Shown: positions 42,167 to 63,809 of the stretch, in pieces
Layout of the letters: each line of letters begins with the position of its first letter
Position numbering within the stretch: the stretch's first letter is position 1
NCBI GenBank assembly: GCA_964016885.1
Contig: OZ024743.1
Location: forward strand, 345,154,001-345,218,000
Direction of reading: 5' to 3'
Origin: Eledone cirrhosa
Lineage: Eukaryota
DNA length: 64,000 nucleotides
Notes under the pieces: model-generated
Databases searched by the model: none
What the model was told of the DNA's origin: nothing
What the model saw: the letters and a program-made list of their open reading frames with translations, nothing else
Program-made: the position numbers and the translations under genes

Positions 42167-42436
42167 TAAGCTATCGCCGTATTTTGACTAAAGAAATTAA
42201 AGAAATTATTTAGCCTGATAGTGGGGTTAAGAACCCTCCGAGAAATGGAAAAAGATGAGTATTGACGTATCCCATGTACGTCAATACTCATCTTTTTCCA
42301 TTTATCCGATTATCCGAGGGTTCCTAACCCCACTATCAGGCTAAATAATCTCTTTAATTTCTTTAGCCAAATTACGGCGATAGCTTACATTTCTAATAAT
42401 TTCAAGCCCACTCGCTGTTTCGAAAATATTCTTACT
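42167..42436 (+). mobile_element. Fold-back (palindromic) element abutting (TA)n; probable PLE 3'-end fragment
   Basis: Inverted arms 42167-42269 and 42277-42387 with a 7-nt loop. The right arm continues ~50 bp into the (TA)n tract, the same asymmetry as the 54.6-56.1 kb PLE palindrome. Confidence 0.6.
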
Positions 42437-42544
42437 ATATATATATATATAAATATATATATATATATATATATATATATATATATATATATATATATAT
42501 ATATATATATATATATATATATATATATATATATATATATATAT

Positions 42545-43147
42545 ATGAAAGACGTAAAAGAAGAAAATTTTAAAATTTAAAAATTAACTTACTTACTAAA
42601 ATTTTCACTCCAACTAATTAGTTTCTATAATGGGATAAAGATAGTTACGCAATGTAACTGTCGAGAATTCATTACGTCACCAGGGAGTCTATTCTCAGGT
42701 GAGTCTCCAGGCAATGCGCGGACACTAGGGACTCATATAAAAATAATAATAGTTCGGTGGATGGAACAGCTAGCGAGGACTGATTTCCAAAGCACTGAAA
42801 AAGTTCACTGTCTCTGGTCAAATGGCAGATTCTAAAGAATCAATCACGTGACACTGAGGCTAGTCGGAAGGAGTGGGGTGGTAAAATGACAAAAGCCTAC
42901 TACCACTAAAATAAGTTAGTAGTGGATTTGGCAGGTTTGCTCAACAAATAAATAATTTGGAGATAAATATAGAGAATTAGTATATTTACCGACATATGCG
43001 TACAGATGTACACTAATGCTAGCAAATACATAAGTTATGTCATAGTACCTAGGTGGTTCAATGCAGGAGGATGCAGAACAATTATATGAAAGACGTAAAA
43101 TAAGAAAATTTTAAAATTTAATAATTAACTTACTAAAATTTTCACTC
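42545..43147 (-). mobile_element. Retrozyme-like / PLE pLTR partial-tandem element (~540-nt unit plus ~60-bp terminal direct repeat) in (TA)n
   Basis: Direct repeat ATGAAAGACGTAAAA...TTTTCACTC at 42545-42610 and 43086-43147. (TA)n on both sides; contains an HHR on the minus strand. Confidence 0.75.
42607..42688 (-). ncRNA. Type-I hammerhead ribozyme with long helix II and an A6G core variant
   Basis: Minus strand reads ACTCC-CTGGTGA-[CGTAATG...GACAGTTAC ATTGC GTAACTATC...CATTATA]-GAAA-CTAATTAG-TT-GGAGT. Helix I is ACTCC/GGAGT and helix III is palindromic. Confidence 0.7.
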
Positions 43148-44099
43148 TATATATTTATATATATATATATATATACATATATATACATATGTATATATAT
43201 ATATATATATATATATATATATATATATATATATATATATATATATATATATATATATATATACATACATATATACACACACACACACACACACACACAC
43301 ACACACATATATATATATATATATACATACACACACATATAAATACATATATATATGAGGGTGTATAGGTTTGCTTGAAGCATTGTGAAATATGTAAAAT
43401 ACGTAGTTTAGAAAGCCACAACAATGCAGATGGGAAATCTCGAGGTACAAACATGTACAAACACATCTACAGATATACACATATATACACATATACAAAA
43501 TACATAAATACACATACACAAATATATATATATATATATATATATATATATATATATATATATATATATATATATATACACACACACACACACACACACA
43601 CACACACATATATGTATATATATATATATATATACAAATATACAAATAAAGGTATATATATATATATATATATATATATATATATATATATAAAGGGCCC
43701 GCTACTGAATAAACTCTATGAACACTGTCCGAACTACATGCACAAAAACTTTGCAACTTTCAAATAACTTAAACCACTGTTAATGCCCGATGGCTAAAAA
43801 CGATGTCACCCCTTTTTTTTTTTAAACGACAAAATAGCCCCTCTACCTCCTTCCCACCCCACCCTAACCCTCCTCAACCTGAAACACGCCACTATAGTTA
43901 TGTAAGTACCTCTTACCTATCTGCACTTTCTGCTTGTAGAGCTGTTTTTATGCGCCTGTGTGTTTGCGCATATTTATGAGTACATGTTTGTATGTATTTG
44001 TATGAGTGGCCGTTCGTTAGTATGCATATCGCTGTGTGTACGTGAGTTCATATGTACCTGCACGTATATATATATATATATATATATATATTCATAAAA

Positions 44100-60614: not shown

Positions 60615-61595
60615 AAATGGAACTGGTGATTGGACTGTATGTGCTTTCTAAATTAAAAGATCTCTTCCCACTGGAGAGGGCTTGTATCGCGACGACGGAC
60701 TACTCAAAACTTCAGCCGCTGCGCTACAGACCGAACCAGAAAGGATCTTCTAGAATCTCCGACCTAGGGTTCCAGATTACCATCCAGAATAACCTGAATT
60801 TGGAGGACTTCCTCGATGTTACACTCGAAAGTGAACTCATGAATCTCGAAAGTGGACTCTACTACCCGTATAGGGAGCCCAGTGAGATCCTCCCATATAT
60901 GTACAAGAACTCTAACCGAATTCTTTGAACTCCATGAGGCACCCAACCACCGCCGGAACAGGAAAAGTAGGGTTATGTTGTATAACCCATCCCACAATGC
61001 AGAAGTGGCAAAACCACATGCTCGGATTTTCTTGCAACCACAGCCATGGTAGCATAGGATTTTCAATAAAAACCCAGTAAAGCTCTCCTAACCAACAAAA
61101 GTAAATATAGCACAATGTATTGCTGCATATAACAGGACCAAACTCAACAGACATAGTTATAAAAGTCCATAGAACAATACTGCAATTGCCATAGAATAAT
61201 ACTGCAATTGCCGCCAACGGGAGGAGTACCCTCTAGACTCCAAACACCTAACTATCAATGTAGTATACAAATGTGAGGTCACCTCCACCACGAAGAGAAA
61301 AGCATACTCACGTATGACGGCTAATACCTTCAAATCCCGATTCACGCAGCACAAATATTCCTACTGACTCTCAGAGAGAAAGCATAGAAGAAGCCTTTCC
61401 AGCCATCTCTGGCAGTTACGCGAAAACGGAACACCCTGCCAGCTACGCTGGACAACCATCTCCAGATACCTAACCTATTCAGGATGTGGAAGACCCCACA
61501 ACTTGTGCCCACCCGAAGCATAGTGTTCGACAGGGACACATTAATAAACAACAAATCAGAACTAGTCACCAAATGTATGCTTCGCATAGAAAAAT
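60615..61595 (+). pseudogene. Decayed Penelope-like element: RT C-terminal half plus GIY-YIG endonuclease (frameshifts, stops, internal deletion)
   Basis: Motifs in the expected order across frames: ELVIGLYVLSKL; GLYRDDGL (YRDD at 60685-60696); ITIQNNL..DFLDVTL..NLESGLYYPYREP..YMYKNSN; RNRKSRVMLYNP; HRIFNKNPVKLS; CNCRQREEYPL...NVVYKCEV...AYSRMTANTFKSRFTQHKYS; LINNKSELVTKC. Confidence 0.88.
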
Positions 61596-63489
61596 CATAC
61601 CTGTGCCCCAAACTAATAAAAGATCCTGGAGGCTCGTGATCCAAGTCAACCAAGCGTAGGAACCCAAAACATTCGGCATTTAAGCCTCCACAGCAATATG
61701 TATCTGGACTAAGCCCCACCATACACTCCTGCTCAAGCACCCGGACTTCACCGGGAACCCACTTGCAGAGGCCCTGGGCCTCCAGCACATTCTCCCACCC
61801 TCAGCTAGTATATCAACCTTTATCACCTACGTTGTGCCATCAACCTACCACTAATCACCTGTATTTTTCCTTTCACATATTTTACTTCCCATGTATATAT
61901 ATATATATATATATATATATATATATATATATATATATATATATATATATATATATATATATATATATATGCATATAGCCTTAAACGTCTTCCTCCCTGA
62001 TTCTTGTATGGATGTATATGAATGTAGCACGCACAGATGTGCGTGCATGTTAATGATACATGTGGGTGCGTGTGTGCAGACATTTCCACCATCTCTTCTC
62101 ACCATACGGACATGAATGGACCCGTGTTTGCGCATGTGAGACTGTACGGATGTGTATGCGCATATGGGTATATACATATATATATGTATATGTATGTGTC
62201 TGCACATTCAGGTATGTGAATGTGCATGTATGGTTGCGTACATATATGTGTATGTATGCACATGGGTATGTGAGTCTGCATGTTTGAATGTGCTTCTGCT
62301 TCTGTGTGTATTCTTCACCCACTCTAATTTGTACTCTAAATTCTTATCTCACCCCGCTCCTTCCATTAAAGTAATAATTGATTTTCTTTCTTCATGCCTT
62401 TTTATGATAAAACCTTCTTAAACTTCCCAGTATACTGCTGTGTGCCTGCGTGTAGGCAGAATGCATACATATTGTACACACACTTCATCACTGGTTATAT
62501 ACCCATACAATCCGTTCTACCTATTTTAAATCCCTTATATTTTACCTATTTGATCCTATTTACTAATTTATTTAACCATTTGCTCTTTTACTTCTATATA
62601 ACCCACTTTTAATTGTTAATTCTTCACTTAAAACATCACCTTAAGCCTATAAGCCCCATCTATAAATAGCTCTACCCTTCCTACCTCGACTCCGATAGCC
62701 ACTATGCCCCTTCTCCTCCTACTCCATTCCTACCTACTAACTACCTCTACCCCTACCAACACTACTTCCTTTCCTGACCCCTTGCCTGATGTTATTTCTG
62801 TTTACCTTTTACACACACACACACACACACACACACACACACACACACACACACACACACACACACACACACACACATATATATATATATATATTTACTT
62901 ATATTCATATTTATATTAAGACCATATCAACCACTTGATTTTGTCTCTACGTCTACATTCATTGCTTTAGTGCTACTCTGCATGAGCTCATAACTTGTTC
63001 CACTGTCTATCTACCCTGGCAGACTAGACACTCAGGGTTATATGAGATTCGTATTTGAGGGCAGGAGATCATGGACAGATCTCAGGAGAAAACTAATGCT
63101 AAAAGGCGCCCTATGCGACATCTCAATCCAACTGATACACGTCCGGAGTACACCTTCCCACGTCATCCACCAGCCTTGTTATATCTACTGTCCTGCCAGG
63201 CAGGATCTTCTGGAATCCACATCTTTCTTTACCTCCTCTAAAATCAGATCTATTCTAATCTTCCCCCCCCCCCCCTCGCCTCTGACCACCGTTCCATTTT
63301 TGGTACACACATCCACTTATTATAGACCAGAGTATGTCTTTTCCTTTACTGCATCTACAACTTCAATGAGTCTCCATCTTCTGTTTGGTTTTATATATAT
63401 ATATATATAAACAGTATATATATATATATATATTTCGTTTCTGAATTTGTTTAGCAAGATTCTTTATCTGAAATCGTGTGTTGAAACCG

Positions 63490-63809
63490 ATATTGTTATA
63501 CTTTGGGAGGGTCATGTTGCGCAAACTGAGCACGCAACCCACACACAAACAAAATGGCGTAGGATAGAAGAAAGGAAAGGCACAGAAACGAAGAAAGAAA
63601 TCCCCAGTCACTGAAGAGGTCACAGAGTGTGTGACGAAAGAACTATGACTATATATATATAAACAACTATCTGGTTGTGGAACCAACCAACCAACCAGAA
63701 ATTTATAAATTTGTAAATTTATAAATATATAATAAATTAAATTGAAGTGAAAGCAACTGGTGCGTGTGTTTCTTATTGGCAACATGACCCTCCCAAAGTA
63801 TAACAATAT
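63490..63809 (+). mobile_element. 320-bp HHR-bearing element with 31-bp terminal inverted repeats, ending in (TA)n
   Basis: ATATTGTTATACTTTGGGAGGGTCATGTTGC (63490-63520) is perfectly inverted at 63779-63809. Internal HHR and AATAAA. Confidence 0.8.
63606..63650 (+). ncRNA. Minimal type-I hammerhead ribozyme
   Basis: AGTCA-CTGAAGA-G GTCACA GAGTG TGTGAC-GAAA-GAAC-TA-TGACT. Canonical core, helix I AGTCA/TGACT, 6-bp helix II; helix III GAAC is one change from a palindrome. Confidence 0.82.

Follow-up and report, generated by a model that had tools for sequence, protein, structure and literature searches.

Penelope-like Elements and Non-coding Retrozymes with Predicted Hammerhead Ribozymes in the TA Repeats of Eledone cirrhosa

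Introduction

What kind of sequence fills a TA-rich stretch of a genome with the folds of hammerhead ribozymes (HHRs), and is such a stretch exceptional? The question is raised by a locus of Eledone cirrhosa, examined here as a window of 64,000 nucleotides (nt) at positions 345,154,001 to 345,218,000 of the forward strand of contig OZ024743.1 (assembly GCA_964016885.1); coordinates below are those of the window. A first-pass annotation, made from the letters alone, had described positions 42,167 to 63,809 as a hotspot in which the ends of Penelope-like elements (PLEs) and HHR-bearing retrozymes use (TA)n tracts as landing pads. That identification is borne out by three families with reverse transcriptase (RT) and GIY-YIG endonuclease (EN), by three families of non-coding tandems, and by 3' ends that adjoin TA repeats. 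It is very probable that the region is a pile of independent, mostly 5'-truncated PLEs (families E, F, and I) and non-coding units that likely borrow their enzymes (families B, D, H, and A) in (TA)n, most of them with a predicted minimal HHR. The finding is genuine; the system belongs to a known category and is usual for this genome.

Statements about cited papers apply to the portions of their text that were consulted. Within those portions, the literature leaves three questions: the role of PLE hammerheads, the mover of animal retrozymes, and the origin of head-to-head inversions. The E. cirrhosa genome holds young autonomous PLEs of three lineages beside likely passengers, with thousands of search candidates per family, and these questions can therefore be tested by counting insertion junctions. 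The leads that emerge are a rule that pairs long with short arms, a tRNA-punctuated passenger (family A), and a probable −1 frameshift in family E.

Hammerhead Folds and Their Density

Bases 38459–64000, an AT-rich part of the window packed with (TA)n, were scanned with a type-I HHR descriptor (core with at most one mismatch, stem I of at least 4 bp, stem II of at least 3 bp); a widened version also admitted a longer loop III and core variants at position 4. The core comprises CUGANGA plus GAAA, with NUH and stems I–III, and its positions are numbered by the usual convention. U4C variants occur in F and part of G, and U4A in C; U4C is described as weaker but viable in PMC3088659, where U4A gave no string match.

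Nine type-I folds were found, at 42607−, 44888−, 46080−, 47720−, 48181+, 51471–51558+, 54727−, 55902+, and 63606+, and the widened descriptor added 54023–54075−, with a U4A core and a 9-nt loop III. This makes ten complete folds spread over seven families, one of which (42607−) bears A6G in this copy, yet the core is intact in 72 of 79 copies of its family, B. The nine folds counted in the first-pass annotation largely hold, as eight of them pass the type-I descriptor; in the ninth, at 45065+, the fold-back junction runs through stem I and leaves 3 bp of it. Among sites that had been called partial, 51471+ and 54023–54075− are complete, 44265 is partial as described, and the core at 56245 is mutated. 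The fold at 50741−, read by eye from the sequence, combines a perfect core and stems I and III with a weak base to stem II, and no HHR was found in the element that opens the region (42168–42435, family A). An Rfam search of the region returned no HHR among the matches listed (150 of 246), giving microsatellite and hairpin noise instead, and at gathering level there were no HHR matches in eight family loci.

Within microsatellite-free segments there are eight HHR loci, versus zero or one in each of 12 shuffles. Self-BLAST of the region confirms the fold-backs and the partial tandem, and family 3' ends do adjoin (TA)n. The region is made of the ends of at least nine high-copy mobile-element families within TA repeats. 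All nine are multi-copy, and not single-copy as would have spoken against the first-pass annotation, and the bulk of the region consists of ordinary interspersed repeats, not the low-complexity DNA that annotation had been expected to mask.

To sample the wider genome, 37 segments of 10 kb each (370 kb) were taken at round coordinates from 11 large contigs. This background contained 31 folds, 30 of them in multi-locus families, while three shuffles of the 370 kb gave 0, 0, and 0. The resulting density is 0.81 HHRs per 10 kb (bootstrap 0.43–1.30, from 30 in 370 kb), as compared with 4.2 per 10 kb in the window under the same descriptor (nine in 21.6 kb), approximately five times background; the best background stretch reached 6. 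TA clusters number 12.9 per 10 kb in the window versus a background mean of 5.8 (range 0–15), and the next 30 kb beyond the window hold two folds. The term hotspot is apt only locally, since a high density of HHRs is a trait of the genome at large and not of a special locus; a unique hotspot is rejected by the background stretches, with their best value of 6 folds per 10 kb and TA clusters of up to 15. The window is dense but otherwise an unexceptional sample of the genome, and the sampling suggests that the system is common throughout it.

Extrapolation to the 3.0-Gb genome gives 1.3–3.9 × 10^5 HHRs, which would match or surpass the largest printed figure met, the 120,000 in axolotl given in a section title of PMC7229834. 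Across all loci, 43 HHR sequence clusters were distinguished, 25 of them present in two or more loci, with the proviso that related clusters may be one family. The commonest background HHR, with an 8-bp AU-rich stem I, accounts for 13 of the 31 matches in three clusters (loci L265, L272, L280, L281, and L299) and is absent from the window.

Autonomous Penelope-Like Families

For each family, the 40 best matches in the same genome were scored, which is not a random sample. First-look candidates, which are not copy numbers, amount to 1430 for E, 2814 for B, 1859 for D, 2334 for F, 2595 for H, 112 for I, 748 for C, 2975 for G, and 199 for A (plus 67 via a second query). As the first-pass annotation had proposed, coding frames lie upstream of some of these ends: E, F, and I lead into open reading frames (ORFs) with an RT followed by a C-terminal GIY-YIG endonuclease, and inverted, 5'-truncated copies are present in all three.

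Family E appears twice in the window. A 5'-truncated 3' end on the minus strand (45914–46554, HHR at 46080–46118) is the youngest insertion, and a head-to-head insertion at 54610–56106 (short arm −, long arm +; HHRs at 54727–54765− and 55902–55940+) extends into the GIY-YIG coding region. Elsewhere, E takes the form of a 4202-nt partial tandem with a 774-amino-acid (aa) RT/GIY-YIG ORF and a 448-aa ORF upstream. The larger ORF has Pfam matches to RVT_1 (28.9 bits, just below the cut-off) and GIY-YIG, and 473 relatives; among its protein relatives, the eukaryotic names are bivalves. The top 40 matches are approximately 100% identical, marking E as young, and its intact, near-identical copies make it a ready biochemical substrate. 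Reading of the ORF against published clade descriptions found GxKF, DKG, a CX4CxxC linker, and a GIY-YIG domain with CCHH, and E is on these motifs a putative Neptune-like PLE. Pseudo-long terminal repeats (pLTRs) were found in E (loci L031–L033) and in F (L305), and none was seen for I.

A locus-specific microsatellite mosaic flanks the E insertion at 45914–46554, with the copy at 45483–45803 inverted relative to that at 47193–47513; this is possibly a target-site rearrangement at insertion.

In the E parent (L031:4965–5055), the 448-aa ORF1 overlaps the RT ORF by 91 nt in the −1 frame, and the heptamer U UUU UUA lies in the ORF1 frame. RT relatives among those listed (120) are all 517–803 aa long, though fusions of up to 1355 aa were searchable, and a 37%-identical relative of ORF1 retains I-H-F-L exactly at the heptamer spot, after a divergent stretch. 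A stable structure was not found downstream of the slippery site (z +1.4), and a metagenome scan for E relatives confirmed none of 112 candidates. A −1 ribosomal frameshift probably joins the two predicted ORFs; splicing or a downstream AUG is possible instead. That of E may be known already: an ORF1 frameshift in some PLE type is noted in the Fig. 1 legend of PMC8557442, and a literature search yielded nothing more specific.

Family F forms a fold-back at 47514–48268 (long arm −, short arm +) with U4C HHRs at 47720–47768− and 48181–48229+, corresponding to the 3' untranslated region (UTR) of a Hydra-clade PLE. The full unit is 4716 nt, with a 317-nt pLTR, an 830-aa ORF, and a 3' UTR of approximately 2.1 kb, and it is assigned to the Hydra clade by motifs read in the ORF: RWR in place of RWK, DKT, a CxCX5C linker, CxxC, and CxH, with no CCHH. 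One flank of an F copy (L306:1–1645) holds another Hydra-like PLE with long open frames, and autonomous families beyond E, F, and I therefore exist.

The fold-back of family I (63434–63805; tail-bearing arm −, short arm +; HHR at 63606–63650+) represents the 3' end of another autonomous PLE lineage, the third, with a 756-aa open frame that was recognised from motifs by eye and a weak tblastn match to E. Pfam was blank for the ORFs of F and I. Helix III of family I is mostly GGAC, which as a dimer would form tandem G·A pairs; the window copy has GAAC, and its pairing should be poorer.

Non-Coding Families

The monomers of families B (534–541 nt), D (420 nt), and H (659 nt) are non-coding and arranged head to tail; every unit bears a type-I HHR, and the units of D and H contain TA/TG tracts. 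None carries a PLE ORF; RT/EN matches in 4 of 90 loci sit in flanks outside the units. By structure, all three would be non-LTR retrozymes, that is, non-coding tandem monomers with a type-I HHR. The B copy in the window spans 1.1 units on the minus strand (42547–43147), begins 1 nt beyond the predicted cut site, and has an HHR (42607–42688−) with a long stem II and an 8-nt palindromic helix III. That of D is a fold-back at 44680–45368 (left boundary approximate) with a complete HHR at 44888–44930− and a truncated one at 45065+, and that of H is a fold-back at 51030–51945 (right boundary approximate) whose complete HHR occupies 51471–51558+.

Family A is different in kind, as its tandem unit of approximately 270 nt contains a tRNA fold (Rfam 41.4 bits, cut-off 29). 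The head-to-head insertion in the window (42168–42435; left arm −, right arm +; GGA anticodon) is broken off inside this fold. No HHR was found in the A unit: no descriptor cluster derives from A, and Rfam yields only the tRNA in L244. Family A is accordingly kept apart from the retrozymes. In L244, units of two types appear to alternate. The 5' ends of A, mapped in 74 arms from 48 insertions, include nine at positions 45–58 around the tRNA +1 (position 52), where the hazard of ending is 0.039 versus 0.010–0.013 on either side; this suggests a transcript start or an RNase P cut. A further 34 of the 74 arms start at 101–126, in the T-arm and acceptor strand. This second cluster points to stalling of the RT on the folded tRNA; a TA-like palindrome at the same place could explain it equally well, however, and one of the two queries started at 116.

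Families C and G carry full family HHRs; their parents were not among the elements found. The window holds two fold-backs of C, one at 44181–44397 (long arm −, short arm +) in which the 5' half of stem I is missing from both HHRs, and one at 53995–54144 with the complete U4A HHR at 54023–54075−. The G copy at 56245–56490+ belongs to a family whose core has C4 or U4, and its own core is mutated; a G-related copy, 70% identical to it, lies at 50742–50970−. There is no ORF in the 330 nt of shared sequence upstream of G. Most G copies share a single fixed start, which lies 114 nt upstream of the cut site; a B-box-like motif is also present (56245–56490; L214–L238). Family G may be an internally promoted HHR element resembling a short interspersed nuclear element (SINE).

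The Insertion Footprint

The proposed enrichment of (TA)n at insertion junctions is pronounced. Scored as (TA)4 within 6 nt, it follows 55–83% of 3' ends per family, versus 4.2% by chance at random background positions: 23/37 for B, 42/67 for D, 23/31 for H, 35/43 for A, 27/40 for F, 35/47 for I, 25/30 for G, 50/81 for C, and 24/44 for E. Copies met incidentally in other loci, whose flanks are themselves TA-rich, gave 46/69 for B, D, A, G, and C together, 9/16 for I, 1/4 for F, and 4/18 for E, the last count including spurious matches.

Every family has two fixed 3' ends, 38–167 nt apart, and the short site is TA-like in eight of nine families (partly a BLAST-edge effect). Head-to-head pairs numbered 133, of which 102 could be classified, with both ends at a fixed site, and 31 were set aside. 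A long arm was joined to a short one in 94 of the 102, as against six long-long and two short-short pairs (binomial P 1e-19); some queries made one arm necessarily long, never the second. The 3' tail is accordingly on one end only in all classifiable pairs of F (17/17) and I (9/9). In E, the tail measures 49 nt in the window, and the genome-wide pair classes (three long-long, two long-short) are unreliable. Arms within a fold-back differ by 0.7–4.6% and by the fixed tail, and arms of one insertion share rare variants 4–35 times more than unrelated copies do in seven of seven families tested. For example, rare variants common to arms or tandem units number 3.0 versus 0.15 per kb in B and 1.4 versus 0.04 in F; loci that overlap one another were imperfectly removed in this analysis and in that of core and stem variants below.

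Retrozymes and PLEs thus leave a common footprint: insertion into TA, arms placed head to head, and a pair of fixed 3' ends. This ties the retrozymes to the PLE machinery and provides direct genomic support for their mobilisation by PLEs. Both PMC3846280 and PMC8557442 describe a tail on one inverted arm, head-to-head geometry, the same architecture, and a preference for TA. A literature search met no count of the long/short pairing rule and no such footprint for retrozymes, though subscription papers, supplements, Repbase, or Dfam could hold either.

A Model of Insertion

In the proposed mechanism, the GIY-YIG endonuclease would nick both strands of a TA tract, and each free 3'-OH would prime reverse transcription on the element RNA, one at a distal and one at a proximal start site; the interval between these sites would be the PLE "tail". 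The two cDNAs would end at variable points, and a head-to-head junction would then form between them, in many cases across a short match of a few bases; copies longer than one unit would derive from multimeric or circular RNA. The HHRs would likely cut weakly, only as dimers (through a self-complementary helix III) or with protein help, and so trim or circularise tandem transcripts, with most cDNAs passing through the site. Finally, the TA remaining on both sides of the insertion would attract the next one. The mechanism resembles the twin priming of L1, save that both arms here copy the same 3' region.

It is tempting, if still speculative, to extend this scheme to a fixed-site form of twin priming, in which each nicked strand would be assigned one of the two RNA start sites, so that every fold-back combines a long and a short arm. 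Passengers would hijack this machinery amid some 200,000 hammerheads, and A would have swapped its ribozyme for a tRNA-like fold, with Pol III initiation or RNase P cutting setting the ends of its unit; A would then be a ribozyme-free, PLE-driven SINE.

Role of the Hammerheads

Are the hammerheads used at all? They may instead be vestigial, or serve only as protein-binding or folding elements whose cleavage is irrelevant to mobilisation, a reading that deserves to be taken seriously although it is doubtful on the evidence of conservation. In addition to B, the core is intact in 70/91 copies of D, 34/34 of H, 10/11 of E, 48/49 of F, and 45/47 of I; in G, 20 of 32 cores are intact and a further 11 have the canonical U4. 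An intact core recurs in 25 sequence clusters, though the core is part of the descriptor. Variants shared among copies avoid the core (4/77 positions versus 91/544 elsewhere) and keep stem pairing more often than rare variants do (10/16 versus 22/86, P 0.007, with duplicates imperfectly removed). Helix covariation, which the first-pass annotation had named as a check, is present to a modest degree as double changes in stem II of B and stem I of D. Helix III is self-complementary in six of seven families.

The 5' ends of the copies speak less clearly. In B, seven of 60 arms (six of 39 insertions) begin within −5 to +3 of the predicted cut, where 1.1 would be expected at a flat rate and approximately 2.4 from neighbouring positions by hand count. 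The observed number is some three times that at the neighbours, and the excess is rated as modest because of the neighbour-based expectation. Weak, dimer- or protein-dependent cleavage of the type described in PMC4209133 and PMC11167929 fits both the intact cores and the sparse ends at the cut site.

Several observations weigh against a working hammerhead, and with it against parts of the overall interpretation. Most B arms read through the predicted cut site. Six of the seven HHR families mapped have no pile-up there, with 1/80 ends for D, 1/48 for H, 1/52 for E (not an unbiased sample), none for F or I, and for G only 2/39 near the cut, at −4 and −5; cleavage as a general setter of 5' ends is rejected for these six families by the same maps. 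In local folding, the HHRs of H and F fail to form stem I (P 0.0 and 0.05), the cores of C and F vary at position 4, and several families are mismatched next to the core at the base of stem II. Self-cleavage is here a prediction from sequence. The spread of family A, in which no HHR was found, shows the same footprint; mutation of the HHR does not prevent insertion in vitro (PMC11167929), and Naiads lack HHRs (PMC8557442). As for the footprint, 31 of the 133 fold-backs are unclassifiable and eight break the pairing rule, and the similarity of arms could partly reflect later gene conversion. Mobilisation of the retrozymes by PLEs, of whichever family, is likely.

Clusters of ends at −361 in E, at −232 in F, and at position 93 in A were treated as alignment artefacts of low-complexity tracts or an internal palindrome.

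Origin of the Fold-Backs and Tandem Units

The main rival on mechanism accepts the identity of the elements and derives the fold-backs from DNA self-priming, in which one cDNA or the nicked TA tract would serve as primer for its own copying, or from antisense templates, rather than from two target-primed events. The rare variants that arms have in common would suit this origin, as would the palindromic junctions of some copies in C, I, and A and the locus-specific flank duplicated in inverted orientation (45483–45803 and 47193–47513), and self-priming on an antisense template has been proposed in PMC3846280. A simple fold-back, however, is a perfect mirror, and the arms usually differ in their 5' truncation point; in 94 of 102 pairs, moreover, the end of the second arm is the other of the two fixed sites, a choice that copying from DNA does not obviously explain. 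Self-priming is for these reasons unlikely to account for the fold-backs, and two priming events at the target are preferred.

It is more improbable still that B, D, H, and A are satellites grown locally by unequal crossover from PLE ends. Arrays of 5–7 units do exist, units of one array share rare variants, and local tandem amplification is discussed in bioRxiv 2026.07.22.740005; most copies nevertheless comprise approximately 1–2 units, are dispersed over many contigs, and show the PLE footprint of fixed 3' ends, TA targets, and head-to-head long and short arms. Local amplification is largely refuted as an account of their dispersal and may explain the growth of the longest arrays. Lastly, chance folds or assembly errors in low-complexity DNA, which a TA-rich region prone to spurious fold-backs might invite, are already refuted by the shuffles (0–1 folds for the region, 0 in 3 × 370 kb of background), by arms that differ in sequence and in a fixed tail, and by the genome-wide recurrence of the families.

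Relation to Known Elements

The tRNA-derived SINEs, which include the HHR-bearing schistosome element Sm-alpha, offer the closest parallel to family A. Like them, A holds a tRNA-like fold inside a retrotransposed, non-coding unit, in this case tandem; it shows neither an HHR nor a poly(A) tail, and its footprint is of PLE type, not of the type left by long interspersed nuclear elements.

Among endonuclease-bearing PLEs, those of the Neptune clade (PMC8557442) match E in GxKF, DKG, the CX4CxxC linker, and the C-terminal GIY-YIG with CCHH, and also in pLTRs, an HHR near the 3' end, a TA target, and head-to-head copies. Family E differs by its separate 448-aa ORF1, which overlaps the RT ORF in the −1 frame. 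Likewise, Hydra-clade PLEs (PMC8557442) share with F the RW(R) and DKT motifs, the CxCX5C linker, the lack of CCHH, CxxC plus CxH, an HHR, and TA insertion; F differs by a length of 4.7 kb, where the clade is generally below 3 kb (a tendency, not a strict criterion), by its 3' UTR, by RWR for RWK, and by its U4C core. Naiad and Chlamys elements have an N-terminal GIY-YIG and no HHR, and E, F, and I, with a C-terminal endonuclease and HHRs, therefore belong to neither.

Metazoan non-LTR retrozymes (PMC7229834; bioRxiv 2026.07.22.740005) resemble B, D, and H in being non-coding tandems with a type-I HHR in a PLE-holding genome. The E. cirrhosa monomers are longer (420–660 nt versus a typical 300 or so), have HHRs of the minimal type, occur mostly in copies of approximately 1–2 units, and bear an explicit PLE footprint; they are known here from genomic DNA. 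The minimal PLE hammerheads of PMC4209133, which are of dimer type and cleave weakly, are similar in their short stem I, extra unpaired base before stem II, and short palindromic helix III, and in occurring as opposite-strand pairs 100–700 bp apart and as many families per genome. They are cited at 2,000–9,000 per genome, versus the 1.3–3.9 × 10^5 estimated above. Several families here are mismatched where G10.1–C11.1 would be expected next to the core, two have U4 variants, and helix III of C is self-sufficient. Finally, the Poseidon element PAc of Anolis (PMC11167929), for which extension on two strands and two start sites were demonstrated in vitro, shares with the present system an AT-rich target, a tail delimited by two RT start sites, extension of both strands, and a weak HHR. 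No strand difference in start site was seen in that study, whereas the two arms here nearly always use different ones.

Other Features of the Window

An old, broken PLE remnant with an RT thumb and GIY-YIG, resembling the Hydra-clade family F (34% over 47 aa, pairwise E 1e-5), lies at approximately 60660–61640 on the plus strand and has no Pfam match. The window also holds other interspersed repeats, at 43357–43475, 48915–49054, 49992–50147, 51946–52062, 53004–53950, and 56505–56914, each of which recurs in 5 to 29 or more other loci. Two of these have decayed HHR arrangements. The segment at 43357–43475+, absent from the first-pass annotation, was recognised as a repeat by search and as a fold by eye, and that at 48915–49054+ is the 3' end of another HHR family, with the GAAA half of the core decayed in this copy; the remaining four are of unclassified type. 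Degenerate CTAACC-type hexamers at 40720–41440 are telomere-like, though the contig end is distant. Upstream of the whole region, positions 1–38458 are occupied by a 38-kb satellite of 41-nt units with a 123-nt higher order and a strong strand skew.

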